A DNA stretch of 64,000 nt. Origin: Escherichia phage EP01. Each line of letters starts with the position of its first letter. The stretch's first letter is position 1. Of this stretch, positions 55,620 through 63,613 are shown in pieces. The translations under genes and the position numbers were made by a program. The notes under the pieces are model-generated. The model ran no database searches. It saw nothing but the letters and a program-made list of their open reading frames with translations, and was not told where the DNA came from. The stretch is taken from the sequence record OM135583.1; one strand, 5' to 3'.

Positions 55620-55623
55620 CAAT

Positions 55624-55652
55624 GGGGACCTTTCGGTCCCCATATTTTTATT
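55624..55652. terminator. bidirectional terminator after gene 54
   Basis: GGGGACC-TTTC-GGTCCCC followed by ATATTTTTATTT. Confidence 0.7.
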
Positions 55653-55938
55653 TACGGAATGAAATAAAAGCAGCAACTGAAGCAACTAAACTGTCTTCAA
55701 TATAAACTTCAATTTTTACCGGAGCTTCTGATTCAAATTTACCTGTTACTACACCATGGAAAATGCTTTCAGTCTGTTCTGGCTTTGAAAAATTTTCAGA
55801 AGGAAAAATTCCGAACTTTTTATCTGTTCCAAAAATTTTGATAAATTCATCGTAAACTGCTTCATTAAAAGCGTTATCAGCAGGAATAACGCCTTCAACT
55901 ACAAGTTCTTGACCTAAAAAGCGTAAAGAAGATTTCAT
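55648..55938 (-). CDS. hypothetical protein downstream of alt genes
   Basis: 96 aa ORF. Confidence 0.55.
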   Translation of the reverse strand: MKSSLRFLGQELVVEGVIPADNAFNEAVYDEFIKIFGTDKKFGIFPSENFSKPEQTESIFHGVVTGKFESEAPVKIEVYIEDSLVASVAAFISFRK

Positions 55939-55998: not shown

Positions 55999-58056
55999 CT
56001 ACATTTTGAACTTTTTAGACATTCCGTTGATGTTAATCAAAGAAGCCAAGATTTGAGAAACTTCGTTTTCCTCTTCTTTTGATTCTTCTACAAGGAATTG
56101 ATTAAATCCAGCCATTGGACGAACTTCACCAGTTTCCATCAGGTGGTCGCCATCATATACCGATTCTTCTAATTGTTCAGAAGGAGGAACGATTGTGCCT
56201 TCGATTAGATACTTGTTATAAGCAGTTTCTTTCATCATGTACGTACTCACTTTATTAATCTTCAGCAAAATTCCACGTGGTAAAATAACTTCAGCTTCTG
56301 ATGGAAATCCTGATAAATGACCCGGAACGATAACTTTGATTCGCTCAGCTCCTTTAATTACCATACCCACGCTAGTTTCAGCATCTTCATTCGCATAAGC
56401 AGAGTGACTGCCCATATGCATCAAATCTTCTGCGTCAACTGAACCTTCTCCTTCACCAGAAAATACTGCACCGGAATCATCTAGAGCCATATAGTTTTTA
56501 CCATACTCACCGAAGATATTTGGTTTAAGCGATGTTGATACGAAGTTCTTGAAATAGAACATTCTATTTTCAATATTATGACGTAAAGTTTTAAAGGTAA
56601 CTTCTTGTCCACGGTAAAGTGTAGTTCCTGGAGGAAGAACTGATCCTTTGGCAAAGGCAGAATCCATTGTCTCGATGTGTTTAATAGCTCGTTCCATATA
56701 TTCTTCACGGGTAGAATCTGGTTTACCTAAAAGGAACGAGTTCATTTCAACATATGAATCTGCACAATAATCTTCAATTACATCAGACTCAGCCTGAGTT
56801 AATCCTTTTGGGGGTACTTCAGTACTTGCATATTCATACGCTTGAGAAGCAGACTCATTAATCAATTTATAAATGCCATTCATGACAAATTGAACAATAG
56901 CTACCTTTTCATCTGGCGTGGCTTTAGAACCTTTAACTAAATCATTGACGATTTTCTTAATAACATCAAAGCTATTAGAAATATTAATGTCAGCAAGATC
57001 GCTTAAAATTTTATCAGTTTTATAATCAAAAAATTCTTTATTCTTTAAATATTCTTGAGAACCTTGATATGTTATATCGCTCTGTAACTTGATAGATGGA
57101 TCACGTAAACGTGCATGAGCCAATGCAATATGATTTCGGAAGCTTTCTAGTTCATAATCATTAGATTTAAAACGAGAAGCACTTCTCATACCACCGATAG
57201 CTCCTTTGCTGAAGTTTGAACCAACCTGAATAACGCCAGAGTTCATTGGTCCTTCTGCTTTATATACTGGAACTTTAGATTCAAACTCTTGATATTTCTT
57301 AGCAGCGAAGCTATCACCCTGAAGTGAAGCATCGACAGTAGAATATTGAGCTTGTGCTGCTAATCGACGACTAATTTTAGTTTTCTGAATTACAGCTTGA
57401 TCCGTGCGCTTATCATTTTCTAAAGCAATAGAAGCAGCAACAGCAACAGCTTTAGGAACAGCATTACCTGTTTTAACGTCTACATAAACATCACCAACCT
57501 TTGATTCAACTTTTGTGAATAACTCAGTTGAAATAGGAGGTACACCTGGAATGTCTTCTAAATTGGCATTTTTACGGTAAACCATAATATATGCATATTT
57601 CTTATCATAGTCCCAGATTTCCTTTAAAAGAACATATCGACCTGCTCCTTTAGTACGCACTAAACGGTCGGCAATAACTTGCATTTGACGAGCAGCGCCA
57701 TTTGTTTTACTCTTTAATACGCGGAATAGGCATGCGTCAATTTTGTACTGTTTCATTGTTTGAAGAGCAGTATCAAAAACCGCATTAATGACACCAATTG
57801 GATTTCCACCCAAGTTTTTAAGTTTAACTAATGATAGTTTCTCGTTGACACCTATCATTACGATATGCATCATTTTATCGCCTGGCTTAACGTTTTTATT
57901 TGTATCACCACCAGAGGTGTATGTACAAAATCTAAATCCAGGAAGCACGCTTTCTTCACCGGCTTGAATAGCAAAAATTTGAGGTATTTTATGCTTAGGA
58001 TTTAAGTTAACAACCGGCGCCGAAGCGCCGTCAAATAATTCTGTAATAAGTTCCAT
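55999..58056 (-). CDS. Alt-family ADP-ribosyltransferase paralog
   Basis: 685 aa; first ~230 residues closely parallel the upstream alt gene (MELITELFD..., KMMHIV, QYKIDAC, RYVLLKE.WDYDKKYAYI); C-terminal R...STS...E-x-E motifs (YRGQE, FVSTSL, SEAEVILPRG). Confidence 0.8.
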   Translation of the reverse strand: MELITELFDGASAPVVNLNPKHKIPQIFAIQAGEESVLPGFRFCTYTSGGDTNKNVKPGDKMMHIVMIGVNEKLSLVKLKNLGGNPIGVINAVFDTALQTMKQYKIDACLFRVLKSKTNGAARQMQVIADRLVRTKGAGRYVLLKEIWDYDKKYAYIMVYRKNANLEDIPGVPPISTELFTKVESKVGDVYVDVKTGNAVPKAVAVAASIALENDKRTDQAVIQKTKISRRLAAQAQYSTVDASLQGDSFAAKKYQEFESKVPVYKAEGPMNSGVIQVGSNFSKGAIGGMRSASRFKSNDYELESFRNHIALAHARLRDPSIKLQSDITYQGSQEYLKNKEFFDYKTDKILSDLADINISNSFDVIKKIVNDLVKGSKATPDEKVAIVQFVMNGIYKLINESASQAYEYASTEVPPKGLTQAESDVIEDYCADSYVEMNSFLLGKPDSTREEYMERAIKHIETMDSAFAKGSVLPPGTTLYRGQEVTFKTLRHNIENRMFYFKNFVSTSLKPNIFGEYGKNYMALDDSGAVFSGEGEGSVDAEDLMHMGSHSAYANEDAETSVGMVIKGAERIKVIVPGHLSGFPSEAEVILPRGILLKINKVSTYMMKETAYNKYLIEGTIVPPSEQLEESVYDGDHLMETGEVRPMAGFNQFLVEESKEEENEVSQILASLININGMSKKFKM

Positions 58057-58059
58057 GAT

Positions 58060-60153
58060 TTATCCTTGAACGAACTTGTAAGGCATGTTTGTAATATCTA
58101 TGCAAGACGCAATAATTCCGAGAGATGATTCTGCTTTCTGTTTAACATTTGATGAAACAAATGATGCAAAGTCAACTCTGTCTTCTATTTCAATATCACC
58201 TGTCATTGCAACTACTTCACCGGTTTCCATTAGACGGTCACCGTCATAAATGACTGATTCGGTGAGTTCTTCCGTAGTCATAACTTCAGCTTGAATGAGT
58301 TTTGTGTTATTAGATGTTGTTCCGTCATTATTAGAAGCATCAGTTATTTTATTAACTTTGACCATCAATCCGCGTGGTAGAATTACTTCAGCTTCTGTTG
58401 CTATTCCGAGACTCCCTGGATATACAACATTAACTTTATGAGCTCCATCAATTGCCCATCCTATTTGAACTTTAACGTATTCAGGATTTTCTTTATACGC
58501 TCTTATTTCGTTCGGATTAATAGTTATTCCTTCTTCATTTTTATCAACTGTTAATTCATTACGAGCTTCTGGTTCTAAAAGACCGATACCAGCATGTGTA
58601 ATTCCAAAACGTCCAAAAATGATAGGAGTTAAAGAAGTAGATACAAAATTTCTGAAATAGAACACTTTATTTTTAACTAGTGCTTCGTATATAGGAGCAG
58701 TCATACTTTGAGCACGATAAACTGTAATGCCTTCTGGTATACGGTCACCATTTTCAAAAGCTGAATCTAAATTATTTATCGCAGATTCAATTTCTTTTTC
58801 ACTCATTACATCATATCGTTCTGGATTGTAGCGGCCTAAAAGAAGATTATTGATGTCAGTATATCCTGATCCACAATATTCTCTAATGCCGCGCTTTTGC
58901 GATGGAGTATATTTAGAACCATCACGTGCAATGGTAATATCAATCATTGGACCTGCACCAATTCCAGAAAAGCTGTAAATCATTCTTTTGAGGAATTTAG
59001 TTTTTGCTGCGTTCCAGGAATTTTTAGTTATTTCTTCCCAGACTTCATCTGGCTGTCCTTTACGGGTTTTATTATGTTTATCAAGCCAAGTATCTTTATA
59101 TTCTTCAAAGAATTTATTAATAGCTGCTGCATACTTCTCTAAACATTTTATTGAAGTAGTTGGTTCATTTTTAATCGCATTAAGAATTACATCTTTAATT
59201 TTTTCAGAAACTTCATTAACCTCACTTTTTGAAAAGAATTTATAATCATAGTGAAGTTCATCTGCAGTTCCTTCGGCAATAATTTTTGCTGCTTTAGTTT
59301 TAGAAGCTAATGAATTAATTCCAAGTTTCATTTCTTCTGCTTCAGGAATTAAAGGAGCTGTAGCAGGTTTATTGAAATTAGCTGCGGTAGATTCATACTT
59401 CTGAAATAATTCATTTTCAAATCTAGAAGATTCTAATGATTGACTTTGCGCAATTGCTCTACGGGAAATTTTAACTTTAACGATTACAGCTTGGTCAGAA
59501 CGTTTATCATTTTCTTGCGCAATAGATGCTGCAATTGCCTCATTTTTAGTTACTTGGGCTCCAGTATCTTTATTGATATAAACATCGCCGACCTTCGATT
59601 CAACTTTAGTAAAGAGCTCGGTACTAATTTCCGGAACTCCTGGAATGTCTTCTAGTGATACATTTTTGCGATGTATAAGAATATATGCATACTTTTTATC
59701 GTAATCCCAGAGTTCCTTAAGAAGGACGTATCTGCCACCTGAACGACTACGGATAAGTCTATCAGCAATAACTTGAATTTGTCGAGCTTGGCCAGCAGTT
59801 TTAGACTTAAGAATACGAAGCATGCAGGCATCAATTTTATACTGACGCATCGTTTGCATCGCAACAGTAAAAACTGAATTGATGTAATTAATTGGGCTTG
59901 GACCGAGACCTTTCAATTTAGCAATTGAACCTTTAGCAGTTAATGTAAAAGGAACAATGTGCATCATTTTATCGCCCATCTTTAGATCACGGTTAGTATC
60001 ACCTCCAGATGTATAGGTACATAAACGAAAGCCTGGTTGTTCAATTGCGTCATCAACATGAACTGAAAAAATTTGCGGTATTTTCTTCTTTGGATTTAAG
60101 TTTGTAATCGGAAGAGTAGTATCTTCGTCAAATAATTCTGTAATGAGTTCCAT
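58060..60153 (-). CDS. alt: Alt ADP-ribosyltransferase (virion-packaged, injected)
   Basis: 697 aa from second Met; R-S-E motifs (VYRAQS, FVSTSL, TEAEVILPRG); TATAAATA late promoter about 20 nt upstream on the minus strand. Confidence 0.8.
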   Translation of the reverse strand: MELITELFDEDTTLPITNLNPKKKIPQIFSVHVDDAIEQPGFRLCTYTSGGDTNRDLKMGDKMMHIVPFTLTAKGSIAKLKGLGPSPINYINSVFTVAMQTMRQYKIDACMLRILKSKTAGQARQIQVIADRLIRSRSGGRYVLLKELWDYDKKYAYILIHRKNVSLEDIPGVPEISTELFTKVESKVGDVYINKDTGAQVTKNEAIAASIAQENDKRSDQAVIVKVKISRRAIAQSQSLESSRFENELFQKYESTAANFNKPATAPLIPEAEEMKLGINSLASKTKAAKIIAEGTADELHYDYKFFSKSEVNEVSEKIKDVILNAIKNEPTTSIKCLEKYAAAINKFFEEYKDTWLDKHNKTRKGQPDEVWEEITKNSWNAAKTKFLKRMIYSFSGIGAGPMIDITIARDGSKYTPSQKRGIREYCGSGYTDINNLLLGRYNPERYDVMSEKEIESAINNLDSAFENGDRIPEGITVYRAQSMTAPIYEALVKNKVFYFRNFVSTSLTPIIFGRFGITHAGIGLLEPEARNELTVDKNEEGITINPNEIRAYKENPEYVKVQIGWAIDGAHKVNVVYPGSLGIATEAEVILPRGLMVKVNKITDASNNDGTTSNNTKLIQAEVMTTEELTESVIYDGDRLMETGEVVAMTGDIEIEDRVDFASFVSSNVKQKAESSLGIIASCIDITNMPYKFVQG

Positions 60154-60176
60154 CATATCCTCTCTAGTGTTTATTC

Positions 60177-60184
60177 TATTTATA
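60177..60184 (-). promoter_or_regulatory. late promoter TATAAATA (alt)
   Basis: Plus-strand TATTTATA, about 20 nt upstream of alt ATG on minus strand. Confidence 0.65.
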
Positions 60185-60189
60185 AAATT

Positions 60190-60207
60190 AAAGGCCCGAA
60201 GGCCTTT
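60190..60207 (-). terminator. UUCG tetraloop hairpin between the 62-aa ORF and the alt promoter
   Basis: Plus-strand AAAGGCC-CGAA-GGCCTTT. Confidence 0.5.
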
Positions 60208-60394
60208 AATAATCTAATGGTAAGAGAGTACGATATATTTCAAACTTTGGACCTTTTTCATAGGCATCAAATGTTTCTGTGAATTTATTATAAGCATATG
60301 CATCTACAAATTCGAGAATGACTTGTGATACAGAAGTAGAAACATCTCCACCTTCTTTTTGAGCAATGACAATTGTTTCTAAGTAAGCTTTCAT
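60206..60394 (-). CDS. hypothetical small protein
   Basis: 62 aa ORF between gene 30 and alt; start overlaps gene 30 stop. Confidence 0.5.
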   Translation of the reverse strand: MKAYLETIVIAQKEGGDVSTSVSQVILEFVDAYAYNKFTETFDAYEKGPKFEIYRTLLPLDY

Positions 60395-61854
60395 AGACCA
60401 GTTACCTCATGAAAATCACCAAATACATCCTCGAATGTATTAGCTTTAGTTTTATCTTCACGTAAACGAATCGCAATCGGAAGAAATAATTTAACGTAAT
60501 CAGTGCGGCCATCAGATTTTAACCAACCGTTGCATTCGCACTCTAGAATTTTTCCAATATAATAATTTTGGTTTTCCATAATGCGAGTACGGTCAAGTTC
60601 ATGTGATTTTACACCGGCTTTATCTTTTAAGCCTGAACCAGCATTTACTTTAATTTTTCCACATTCTGATTCAAGAATAAATCCACCCGCTTTAGTAGGG
60701 TCTTTACGGTGAGGATAAATTCCTACAATTTTTAAATCAACATCAATTACTTCTTTAAATTTATAGAGATTTTTTGAACGAGCATTTTCCCACAATCCAT
60801 CGGTATTTTTGAGAATAATACCTTCAAGACCTTGGTCAATATATTTTTTATAAATTACCTTAGCTTCATCTAGGTTATTTACTACCTGGTTTTCAATTAA
60901 AATTACTTTATCATATACTGATGTCATTTGTTCTAGTTTAGAAAAACGTACATCATATTTTAAACGAAACGCCGGAAGACCGTATATTTCTACCAACGGG
61001 ACATAATCCCAGACCTGAAACTTCATGCATTGAGCTTCTTTTTCAGAAATGGTTCCTTTTAAGGATTTATTGGCGATTCCATTAGAAGTAGTACGAGATT
61101 CCGCTACTTCGGCGAATTCATTAGCTTTACTAATTTCAGGATAAGCATCAAAAAGAAAATCTAGGCCTTCTGGTTCCTTTTTAACTTGCTCATGGTATAC
61201 CAATTCACCATCGATTAACACACCTTCTGGATGAATCTGGCGGGCTTCAGCAGTCATTTTGATTAACTCTTCCTTAAGAAGATCTAATCCTAGATATTCA
61301 TTACCAGCTCGTGATAAAAGACGAACATCATCTAATTCATCTCCTCGGACTTCAGCAAAACACCGAGCTCCATCTGCTTTTAACTGCGCAAAAGCTGGAA
61401 ACTTGATATTCTTACTAATGCCTTTTTCATCATAAGAACTTGCCAGCATTTGAGGTTGTTCAGGAATTAAACCTGGCCAAACTTTGTTTGCAATAGATAC
61501 TGAAGCACCGCATTCAAGGTCTCGCATCATCACTCGACGTAAAACTTCAACATCATCCTTTTTACCATCAGTGATATATCCAGTTAATTCCTCAATTGCT
61601 GCATTTCCAGTCAATTTCCGAGTAGCTAACGTGAATTCAATGAAGTCAAGCATATCGGTAATAGTCAGCATTCCAAAACTCTGGGTAGCAATACCAGGTT
61701 TAGGCCATTTCTTGATATAATACTGTAACCCACGAGAATAAGTCAGACGATATACTCGTTTAAGCAATTCATTATTTTTATTCTTTTCAAGAATTGCTTG
61801 CTTCTGTTTAGTTGATCCAATAGATGCTATTTCATTCAGAATTTTAAGAATCAT
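60391..61854 (-). CDS. 30: ATP-dependent DNA ligase gp30
   Basis: 487 aa; adenylation motif KADG (FAQLKADGARCF); matches my recollection of T4 DNA ligase. Confidence 0.97.
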   Translation of the reverse strand: MILKILNEIASIGSTKQKQAILEKNKNNELLKRVYRLTYSRGLQYYIKKWPKPGIATQSFGMLTITDMLDFIEFTLATRKLTGNAAIEELTGYITDGKKDDVEVLRRVMMRDLECGASVSIANKVWPGLIPEQPQMLASSYDEKGISKNIKFPAFAQLKADGARCFAEVRGDELDDVRLLSRAGNEYLGLDLLKEELIKMTAEARQIHPEGVLIDGELVYHEQVKKEPEGLDFLFDAYPEISKANEFAEVAESRTTSNGIANKSLKGTISEKEAQCMKFQVWDYVPLVEIYGLPAFRLKYDVRFSKLEQMTSVYDKVILIENQVVNNLDEAKVIYKKYIDQGLEGIILKNTDGLWENARSKNLYKFKEVIDVDLKIVGIYPHRKDPTKAGGFILESECGKIKVNAGSGLKDKAGVKSHELDRTRIMENQNYYIGKILECECNGWLKSDGRTDYVKLFLPIAIRLREDKTKANTFEDVFGDFHEVTGL

Positions 61855-62120
61855 TGTTCATCCTTCAGAGTTTGATTTACATCTCTATTATAAATCAATT
61901 CATCATTAAGCTCAGGCAAAGACTTATGATATGTCGTTCTAACTTTATTTCCTTGCATCCAGTGCTTGACGTAAATGAAACCTTGCTCTACACATTTTTT
62001 AAAAATTCGTTCATCCTTTTGAGCACGGAACTCTGGATTGCATCTAAAAAATTGATTTACGTGACCATAATCACGTGTAGTATTACCTTCATTTTCATAA
62101 ATAGTATGAACAACAAACAT
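61851..62120 (-). CDS. hypothetical protein (T4 30.1 position)
   Basis: 89 aa; start overlaps upstream stop. Confidence 0.6.
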   Translation of the reverse strand: MFVVHTIYENEGNTTRDYGHVNQFFRCNPEFRAQKDERIFKKCVEQGFIYVKHWMQGNKVRTTYHKSLPELNDELIYNRDVNQTLKDEQ

Positions 62121-62959
62121 TAGAATGCTCCTTGAAAAATATTATCACCACTAGTAGGTCTATTATACAAATACTCTATGCCACCAGGTTTAATATAGTT
62201 CCATGTCTGAAACGGATGTGTCTGATATGGATGATATAGATGATTATAAGGATTTAATCCAGGCGTTCTCCAGGTAGTGTTCCAAGGAAAAGAATCGTTT
62301 TTAACCATCTTCTCAATTAAATCTTTTATAGCTTTTTCACTATCAAAACTTTCTTTATTTTCCTTCGGCGAAAAAAGCTTATTTTCTACATCATTCCATG
62401 TATAAACTCGCTGCGCAGTTTTTGGAATATTGTCACGCTCTCCTCGAGCCATCCAATAAACTGGAACATTTAATATTTCACTCGCATGATCGCAGTGATG
62501 AGCGAGATCGTCAATATAACAAATTACGTTATATTTCTCTTTTGCCTTTTTGAACAGCTCTTCTTTTGAAGAATCATGACCACACATCATTACTTCTGAG
62601 AAGGCACCAGGAAAAAGAGCGTTCAAATTAAATTGACGATTCAACAGAGCGTCAATAGAATCACCCAATGCTGTAACAGCTACAAAATTATAATCTTCTT
62701 TTAATTTGTTAATTACACACAGGGCATCTTTATACGGAGACAAGTAACGAATAAAATCTGAACGATTGTATTTTTCAATTAACTTGACGCCAAGTTCTTC
62801 GTCACAATTAAAGAGTTTACCTGGAGAAATAAATTTCTCATCTTGGATCATTTTTAAAATATGTTCTAATGGAAGATTATATTTCTGAGCAAAATAAGGA
62901 AGGCCTGATTGCCAGCTTAAACATACTCCATCAATATCAGTCAAAATAGTTGGCTTCAT
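62120..62959 (-). CDS. HAD-superfamily phosphatase/nucleotidase-like protein (T4 30.2 position)
   Basis: 279 aa; HAD motif I ILTDIDGVCL at N-terminus. Confidence 0.7.
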   Translation of the reverse strand: MKPTILTDIDGVCLSWQSGLPYFAQKYNLPLEHILKMIQDEKFISPGKLFNCDEELGVKLIEKYNRSDFIRYLSPYKDALCVINKLKEDYNFVAVTALGDSIDALLNRQFNLNALFPGAFSEVMMCGHDSSKEELFKKAKEKYNVICYIDDLAHHCDHASEILNVPVYWMARGERDNIPKTAQRVYTWNDVENKLFSPKENKESFDSEKAIKDLIEKMVKNDSFPWNTTWRTPGLNPYNHLYHPYQTHPFQTWNYIKPGGIEYLYNRPTSGDNIFQGAF

Positions 62960-63420
62960 AGAGAGTCTCTTAATAGGTTTAACACATCAATAAATTCAGC
63001 TTCGGTTAGTATTGTATCATCTTTTGTTAGACCATTAGCCATGCTGTGCTTCAAAACTTTTCCTTTCGAGGCTTGTAATGCATCACGAAAACCCCTGTTT
63101 TGGATCGCTGCTTCAAAATATGCATTTGTGTATAATTCTTTCCATGCTTCGGAATATCTTGAAAACGGAGTTCCAAGCCAGAACAACGTGCCACGGTCCT
63201 GAGCTCTAGCATAAGACCTTCCAGCTTGTTGGGCGGCAAGCCCGGATAACCCAAATATACGTCTTTGCTGTTCAACATTTTTCACCTTACATCCTTGGAG
63301 GAATCCTTCGAGACCTCCAAATTGGATACCATCCATAACGAAAGGCCATTGGGCGAAATTGCTTAATGCACATGATGGCCATCTAAAATTGCTTCTTATC
63401 TCTAGCTCAGACATTTTCAA
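62956..63420 (-). CDS. NADAR / YbiA-like (DUF1768) protein (T4 30.3 position)
   Basis: 154 aa; resembles YbiA/NADAR-family N-glycosidases (WPSCALSNF, GIQF..LEGFLQ..K, E motifs); family assignment by eye. Confidence 0.6.
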   Translation of the reverse strand: MKMSELEIRSNFRWPSCALSNFAQWPFVMDGIQFGGLEGFLQGCKVKNVEQQRRIFGLSGLAAQQAGRSYARAQDRGTLFWLGTPFSRYSEAWKELYTNAYFEAAIQNRGFRDALQASKGKVLKHSMANGLTKDDTILTEAEFIDVLNLLRDSL

Positions 63421-63613
63421 TACTTATAATTTCAACATCAGCCCAATGACCATAGCAAGGAAGACGAAATTCAACTGGCCAGTTAGGGTCCTTTTCTAAT
63501 ATAATAGACTGAACTTGTGGCTCTTCATATTCATCGGTATACGGACCTTTATACGTTACTTTATATGTGACCTTAATGTACTGAATTCCAAAAATCTTAT
63601 TAATTATATTCAT
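63407..63613 (-). CDS. hypothetical small protein
   Basis: 68 aa; overlapping starts and stops in the 30.x operon. Confidence 0.5.
   Translation of the reverse strand: MNIINKIFGIQYIKVTYKVTYKGPYTDEYEEPQVQSIILEKDPNWPVEFRLPCYGHWADVEIISIENV

Follow-up and report, generated by a model that had tools for sequence, protein, structure and literature searches.

We analysed a stretch of 64,000 nucleotides of Escherichia phage EP01 (OM135583.1), referred to below as the window, and in particular the genes between positions 55,999 and 63,420, where two Alt ADP-ribosyltransferases (ARTs), a DNA ligase, a HAD-motif protein and the NADAR-like protein gp30.3 share one strand within a span of 7.5 kb. This region is very probably the conserved alt-to-30.3 segment of a T2-like Tequatrovirus, in which two independent functional units are neighbours by descent and gp30.3 is AdfN, the anti-DarT factor NADAR. 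A preliminary description, made from the letters of the window, had placed all of these genes correctly on one strand, and we found every one of them at those positions on the minus strand. It had also proposed that the NADAR protein and the Alt transferases are functionally linked. For this we found no support: the alt genes appear to form a separate late unit, the adjacency is not conserved, many phages carry a NADAR without Alt, and adfN deletion mutants are normal in hosts without DarTG1.

The segment as a whole is widespread. Over the 8.4 kb around these genes the DNA is 97-98% identical to hundreds of Tequatrovirus (T4/T2-like) genomes, and at least 80% of the region is covered by 393 records of the phage collection, so the arrangement is common. 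The gene order of phage T2 is identical to that of the window and includes both full-length Alt genes. Gene identities were assigned by comparison with the annotated T4 record and by BLASTP.

Gene 30.3 (adfN) occupies positions 62956-63414 on the minus strand. Reading the open reading frame mechanically from the TTG at 63420 to the stop gives 154 aa, whereas T4 and T2 are annotated to start at the ATG at 63414, which gives 152 aa; from this ATG the gene overlaps the stop of 30.4 by 8 nt. The protein is 96.7% identical to both T4 and T2 gp30.3, end to end over the 152 residues, and matches the family PF08010 (Phage_30_3) over all model positions (1-138 of 138) with E=6e-69 and 230 bits at a cutoff of 36 bits. 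The five substitutions relative to T4 AdfN (window residue first, T4 residue last) are T82V, E89P, R107K, M125I and N127S. They are conservative or of surface type, and none of them affects a catalytic residue. The catalytic codons are found at 63309-63307 (E36), 63288-63286 (K43) and 63048-63046 (H123). Among 80 distinct gp30.3 homologues E36 and H123 were present in all 80 and K43 in 77, with R in the others. H123 lies in the predicted last beta-strand (120-123), and a His at this place, as opposed to Glu or Asp, defines the phage NADAR subfamily. The predicted C-terminal helix (138-151) is intact, while the truncated allele of RB69 is inactive through its loss (PMC11825919).

The predicted structure points in the same direction. 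The AlphaFold2 model of gp30.3 reached a mean predicted local distance difference test score (pLDDT) of 90.1 and a predicted template modelling score of 0.86, and in the fold search a probability of at least 0.97 was assigned only to three solved NADARs, namely YbiA (2b3w), PnNADAR of Phytophthora (8bau) and the DarG1-type GlNADAR of Geobacter (8bat). Links at the level of profiles were weaker: 5 of 13 diverse members of the gp30.3 family matched the Pfam NADAR family PF08719 weakly (best E=4.7e-4), and a search of the PDB with the gp30.3-family profile returned E. coli YbiA as the best match at E=0.05, a marginal value that would not stand alone, with the SNF and E-x(6)-K motifs aligned. Single-sequence phmmer searches of the PDB with gp30.3 and gp30.2 gave nothing useful, and scans of gp30.3, gp30.2, AltA and AltB against NCBIfam and PADLOC matched no relevant model. 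Fold, motifs and this transitive link support membership of gp30.3 in the NADAR superfamily. The earlier impression of a NADAR-like protein thus agrees with the fold, the catalytic residues and the identity to T4 gp30.3.

DarTG1 systems are recognised by a NADAR beside a DarT1 toxin. In the window the neighbours of 30.3 are 30.4 and 30.2, and we rejected a DarTG-like toxin-antitoxin pair since there is no toxin at the locus; the gene resembles an orphan antitoxin. Within 30.3 a further open reading frame of 75 aa runs in another frame (63051-63278, minus strand). It corresponds to 30.3' of the T4 annotation, described there as 'internal translation in a different reading frame', and its conservation could merely reflect that of the gene that contains it.

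For the orthologues of gp30.3 the function is documented in the literature. NADARs are established as guanine-ADP-ribose hydrolases, and those of phages have His as their third catalytic residue (Schuller et al. 2023, PMC11543638). T4 gp30.3 was first predicted to be a phage NADAR and then tested in vitro and in vivo, and it proved both necessary and sufficient for the resistance of T4 and T2 to DarTG1 (PMC11825919, PMC11125620). In vitro the T4 protein, under the name gp30.3, hydrolysed guanine-ADP-ribose and left thymine-ADP-ribose untouched (PMC11125620). Johannesman et al. (2025) renamed the gene adfN and found that adfN deletions of T4 and T2 do not form plaques on DarTG1 hosts, the defect being limited to these hosts, that AdfN-T4 supplied ectopically rescues RB69, that E36A and K43A mutants are impaired and that the purified protein strips ADP-ribose from DarT1-modified DNA (PMC11825919). 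According to a preprint on a transposon screen of T4 (HIDEN-SEQ, 10.1101/2025.11.20.689424), the phage does without adfN on E. coli K-12 and needs it, as a conditionally essential gene, only on DarTG1. Removal of host-imposed ADP-ribosylation of phage DNA, one of the two roles suggested in the preliminary description, has thus been shown for the T4 and T2 orthologues (PMC11825919, PMC11125620), and the plaque assay of a deletion mutant on DarT hosts that it had proposed has already been carried out on them with the outcome given above.

The enzymatic activity and the anti-DarTG1 phenotype of the window protein would be those described for its 97%-identical orthologue. The first unit would comprise 30.4, 30.3, 30.2, 30.1, 30 and alt.1 and would, by T4 precedent, be prereplicative. 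Host DarT1 of the DarTG1 defence would place ADP-ribose on guanine of the phage DNA; gp30.3, using E36, K43 and H123, would break the N-glycosidic bond that joins ADP-ribose to guanine, and the removal would restore replication.

From 30.4 to alt.1 successive genes overlap stop to start by 1-8 nt. This chain ends with alt.1, and the boundary between the two units (60177-60210, minus strand) consists of a putative hairpin terminator and a late promoter. Downstream of alt.1 a 10-bp hairpin with a UUCG loop is followed by a U-run (folding energy -13.5 kcal/mol, z=-2.3). The automatic terminator scan did not list this hairpin; it was found by reading the sequence and confirmed by folding. Directly past it, at 60184-60177, lies TATAAATA, the motif of T4 late promoters, which precedes the alt ATGs by 21-28 nt and is the sole occurrence on the minus strand between 49.4 and 64 kb. 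The hairpin and TATAAATA are identical in T4 and T2. Only 3 nt separate AltB from AltA. At the level of motifs the alt pair is thus probably a separate late transcription unit, and its co-transcription with the NADAR gene is not supported. Because the terminator and TATAAATA separate them, the Alt writers would be made late, for the next infection, and the eraser would belong to a different unit. AltB and AltA would be transcribed from their own TATAAATA promoter and, following T4 precedent, their products would be carried in the phage head, be injected when the next cell is infected and ADP-ribosylate host proteins on arginine.

Several points weigh against this reading of the region. The window allele of AdfN differs from that of T4 at five residues, and its activity would be transferred by identity. 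Window gp30.3 has no match to PF08719 (formerly DUF1768) at E<=1 and is found by the sister family PF08010 only. The hidden Markov model search against NADAR/DUF1768 that had been put forward as a refuting check is therefore misleading, since it gives a false negative for a protein that matches PF08010 alone. The terminator and the late promoter are sequence motifs and not transcript maps, and transcripts of the ligase unit may read through into alt. Finally, full activity of AdfN-T4 needs a further T-even factor (PMC11825919), so that the mechanism given here is incomplete.

A functional module would require that gp30.3 reverses ADP-ribosylation made by Alt, and thereby tunes the modification of host proteins or shields phage nucleic acid from guanine ADP-ribosylation by, for example, AltA. 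The genes are indeed close together, on one strand and inside 7.5 kb, and Iyer et al. (2022, PMC9503650) had remarked on the nearness of NADAR genes to ART genes in phages of the T4 type. Alt also belongs to the R-S-E clade of ARTs, as do ScARP and pierisin, DNA ARTs that are specific for guanine and make a product that NADARs hydrolyse (PMC11125620, PMC11543638), and AltA has intact R-S-ExE motifs. Against this stand the terminator and the late promoter between the units, the deletion genetics and the distribution of the genes. T2, with both Alt genes, and T4 tolerate the loss of adfN, with a defect only on DarTG1 (PMC11825919 and the HIDEN-SEQ preprint).

To describe the linkage across phages we surveyed homologous NADAR loci flanked on both sides by no less than 8 kb (n=66) and searched for Alt within 8-10 kb. 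Alt was found on the same strand in 12 loci and on the opposite strand in 6, another 5 had the HAD gene and ligase only, and the remaining 43 had none of these. Phages KARL-1 (Acinetobacter) and phiAS5 (Aeromonas), for instance, have Alt on the strand opposite 30.3-30.2-ligase, and in Klebsiella phage KP27 there is no Alt near the NADAR gene. The tblastn counts of phage records were 1510 for NADAR, 1438 for the HAD domain and 1221 for Alt, and in Klebsiella phages 272, 279 and 163, respectively; the thresholds differed slightly among the three queries, so these counts are indicative only. Tested NADARs, moreover, act on guanine-ADP-ribose, whereas the mapped target of T4 Alt is an arginine of RNA polymerase alpha. 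We therefore rejected a NADAR dedicated to Alt products on the grounds of separate units, unconserved linkage, distribution and the T2/T4 deletion genetics, and regard a module of this kind as highly improbable.

In phages of Vibrio, Rhizobium and Ochrobactrum the place of ligase and Alt beside the NADAR gene is taken by unrelated genes for replication or repair. The NADAR gene is next to SbcCD-like gp46/47 in Vibrio phage D483 (locus L005, 8001-8456) and next to a helicase in both Rhizobium phage RHph_I9 (L006, 8016-8480) and Ochrobactrum phage ORM_20 (L007, 7950-8420). Such neighbours of distant gp30.3-type NADARs fit a DNA-directed role. We also looked for a consistent NADAR neighbour over 86 loci, and besides NADAR itself no cluster occurred in more than 26 of them. 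The adjacency to Alt is an inherited T-even gene order which is not conserved outside T-even relatives.

The two Alt proteins were characterised individually. For AltB (58060-60153, minus strand; PF03496 E=2e-37) the mechanical open reading frame extends over 58060-60156 and encodes 698 aa, while T4 and T2 are annotated to start at the second ATG (60153), which gives 697 aa. The identity of AltB is 98.1% to the Alt of T2 and 70% to that of T4, and its motif residues are R480, S505-T506-S507, E587 and E589. It is the positional orthologue of T4 alt, in the T2/RB6-type allele, and a predicted R-S-ExE mono-ADP-ribosyltransferase. Identity to T4 Alt, computed per 50 alignment columns, was 94-100% over the first 250 columns, 24-36% from 250 to 400, 46-62% in the catalytic part and 86-90% at the C-terminus. 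AltB is thus a mosaic relative to T4 Alt, which suggests that the target-recognition and catalytic part was replaced allelically and the N-terminal part, which may serve in packaging, was kept. AltA (55999-58056, minus strand; 685 aa; PF03496 E=7e-20; Alt-like PHROG 802 E=9e-255) is a second full-length paralogue, 41% identical to AltB as well as to T4 Alt and 97.4% to the T2 copy, with motif residues R482, S507-T508-S509, E587 and E589. T4 retains fragments of this gene, Alt.-1 and Alt.-2, to which AltA is 95-98% identical and which the T4 record notes as an old duplication; in the same record Alt is described as a protein of the capsid that is injected together with the DNA. Evasion of Mokosh type I is aided by T4 Alt and not by the divergent Alt of Bas37 (HIDEN-SEQ preprint, 10.1101/2025.11.20.689424). 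Because the two differ in this respect, variation among Alt alleles is functionally consequential in a way that is unrelated to NADAR.

Gene 30.2 (62120-62959, minus strand) encodes 279 aa with 96.8% identity to T4, and its start overlaps the stop of 30.3 (ATGA). The motif ILTDIDGVCL, from which the preliminary description had recognised a HAD protein, covers residues 5-14, and both the HAD fold and all four HAD motifs bear this out. Over 47 homologues D8, D10 and K132 never vary, and at least 90% have T96, D150 and D151. In the AlphaFold2 model residues 1-195, the catalytic domain, have pLDDT >90, and confidence is low over most of 200-279. The fold search returned 106 PDB matches at E<=1e-3, and the 50 listed were all of HAD fold. 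Among the matches listed the 5'(3')-deoxyribonucleotidase cdN (2jao, E=2e-8) came first, and the deoxyribonucleotidases 2i7d and 3bwv (E about 1e-8) and generic HAD hydrolases were also found. A family profile search of the PDB likewise placed 2jao at the top, with a marginal E=0.04 that is consistent with the fold and would not stand alone. There was no Pfam or NCBIfam match at E<=0.1 and no PADLOC match, and PHROG 420, to which the protein belongs, is labelled 'unknown function'. The models indicate that gp30.2 is a HAD-superfamily phosphatase whose closest folds are 5'(3')-deoxyribonucleotidases. Because the fold is capped, its substrate is most likely small and probably nucleotide-like. 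A PNKP-type DNA 3'-phosphatase acting with the ligase was rejected on account of the capped fold and of the nearest structures, which are small-molecule nucleotidases and not of PNK type. The tail of the protein, from about residue 200 to 279 (62120-62360, minus strand; ~80 aa), is mostly predicted to be disordered, with a high content of Pro, Tyr, Trp and Asn. Homologues differ widely in the length of this tail, and many are without it; an 'IEYLxNxPT'-like patch recurs in it.

The overlap of 30.3 with 30.2, and the continuation of the chain into the ligase gene, raise the question of a cassette for de-ADP-ribosylation and repair, with gp30.2 as the T-even factor that potentiates AdfN or as an enzyme that processes the released ADP-ribose, and the ligase sealing nicks. 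The order 30.3, 30.2, ligase recurs in several genera of Straboviridae and was seen in Tevenvirinae and in Acinetobacter, Slopekvirus and Aeromonas phages (23 of the 66 loci), the record counts of 30.3 and 30.2 are nearly equal, AdfN reaches its full activity only with a further T-even factor (PMC11825919), and we found no literature on gp30.2. NADAR hydrolysis, however, restores an intact guanine and leaves neither nick nor phosphate to process (PMC11543638). In addition, the 43 loci mentioned above have no 30.2 and ligase nearby and no other neighbour is common across loci, the capped fold of gp30.2 is typical of small-molecule phosphatases, and the T4 transposon screen on DarTG1, in the accessible part of the preprint, names adfN only with its neighbours in the same panel. 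We consider such a cassette very unlikely, and give an equally low chance to 30.3-30.2 forming a two-component counter-defence unit with gp30.2 as the best candidate for the AdfN-potentiating factor. We found nothing to connect gp30.2 or the ligase with ADP-ribose chemistry, or the predicted gp30.2 phosphatase with the Alt system; the overlap of its start with the adfN stop and the recurring gene order are the only hint of a relation to AdfN.

The other genes of the first unit are also close to their T4 counterparts. In order of transcription on the minus strand, 30.4 (63407-63613) is 92.6% identical to T4 gp30.4 and is followed, after 30.3 and 30.2, by 30.1 (61851-62120; DUF3045, PF11243 E=5e-62; 95.5% identity to T4 gp30.1), by gene 30 for the ATP-dependent DNA ligase gp30 (60391-61854; PF01068 E=3e-32; 98.2% identity to T4 gp30) and by alt.1 of the Phage_blade family (60206-60394; PF24647 E=2e-29). 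Downstream of AltA lies alt.-3 (DUF5498; 55648-55938, minus strand). Directly upstream of alt.-3, at 55998-55970, we noted a sigma-70-like promoter that is strong by its motifs, TTTACA-17-TATAAT with TG. Between alt.-3 and gene 54, which converges on it from the plus strand, a 9-bp GC-rich palindromic hairpin at 55622-55643, present on both strands, looks like a bidirectional terminator.

The identity, function and genomic context of gp30.3 are already in the literature, and in this respect the finding is not new. Its value lies in annotation. Most GenBank records of Tequatrovirus (e.g. PQ471460, NC_025448 and PV648363) label adfN/30.3 as 'hypothetical protein', PHROG 652 is, like PHROG 420 for 30.2, of 'unknown function', and a direct Pfam NADAR search misses gp30.3. 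From its sequence the window phage may be predicted to resist the guanine-targeting DarTG1 defence. What remains novel concerns the factor that potentiates AdfN and the roles of gp30.2 and AltA, which present evidence connects only weakly to this finding.

We finally compared the proteins of the window with known systems. The cytosolic and mitochondrial 5'(3')-deoxyribonucleotidases cdN and mdN (HAD, C1 cap) and gp30.2 share the four HAD motifs and the capped Rossmannoid fold, and cdN/mdN are, with a bacterial deoxyribonucleotidase-like protein, the top fold and profile matches of gp30.2. Identity is only 14-18%, and gp30.2 differs in having the extra tail of ~80 aa predicted to be disordered and in matching no Pfam family. 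T4 Alt and AltB agree in position, late promoter, R-S-ExE motifs and the first 250 residues (94-100% identical), whereas their central and catalytic regions are 24-62% identical, and AltA is intact in the window where T4 has only the alt.-1 and alt.-2 fragments.

For gp30.3 the best structural match is E. coli YbiA (2b3w; Foldseek E=1e-4, template modelling score 0.67), which is linked to N-glycosidase action on riboflavin intermediates and to swarming. The two are 18% identical, and YbiA has Glu at the position of the phage H123. DarG1, the DarT1-associated NADAR antitoxin of the BC4488 subfamily (G. lovleyi 8bat, E. coli C7), has the fold and the catalytic Glu and Lys in common with gp30.3, and the published orthologue of gp30.3 performs the same chemistry as DarG1, hydrolysis of guanine-ADP-ribose in DNA (PMC11543638). 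Unlike DarG1, gp30.3 has no adjacent DarT, no N-terminal extension and no PADLOC model, and its third catalytic residue is His and not Asp; AdfN-T4 also differs from DarG1 in being unable to neutralise DarT1 in uninfected cells (PMC11825919, PMC11125620). The closest counterpart is T4 gp30.3/AdfN itself, which the window protein resembles, apart from the five substitutions, in its flanking genes, in E36, K43 and H123, in the predicted fold and in the C-terminal helix.

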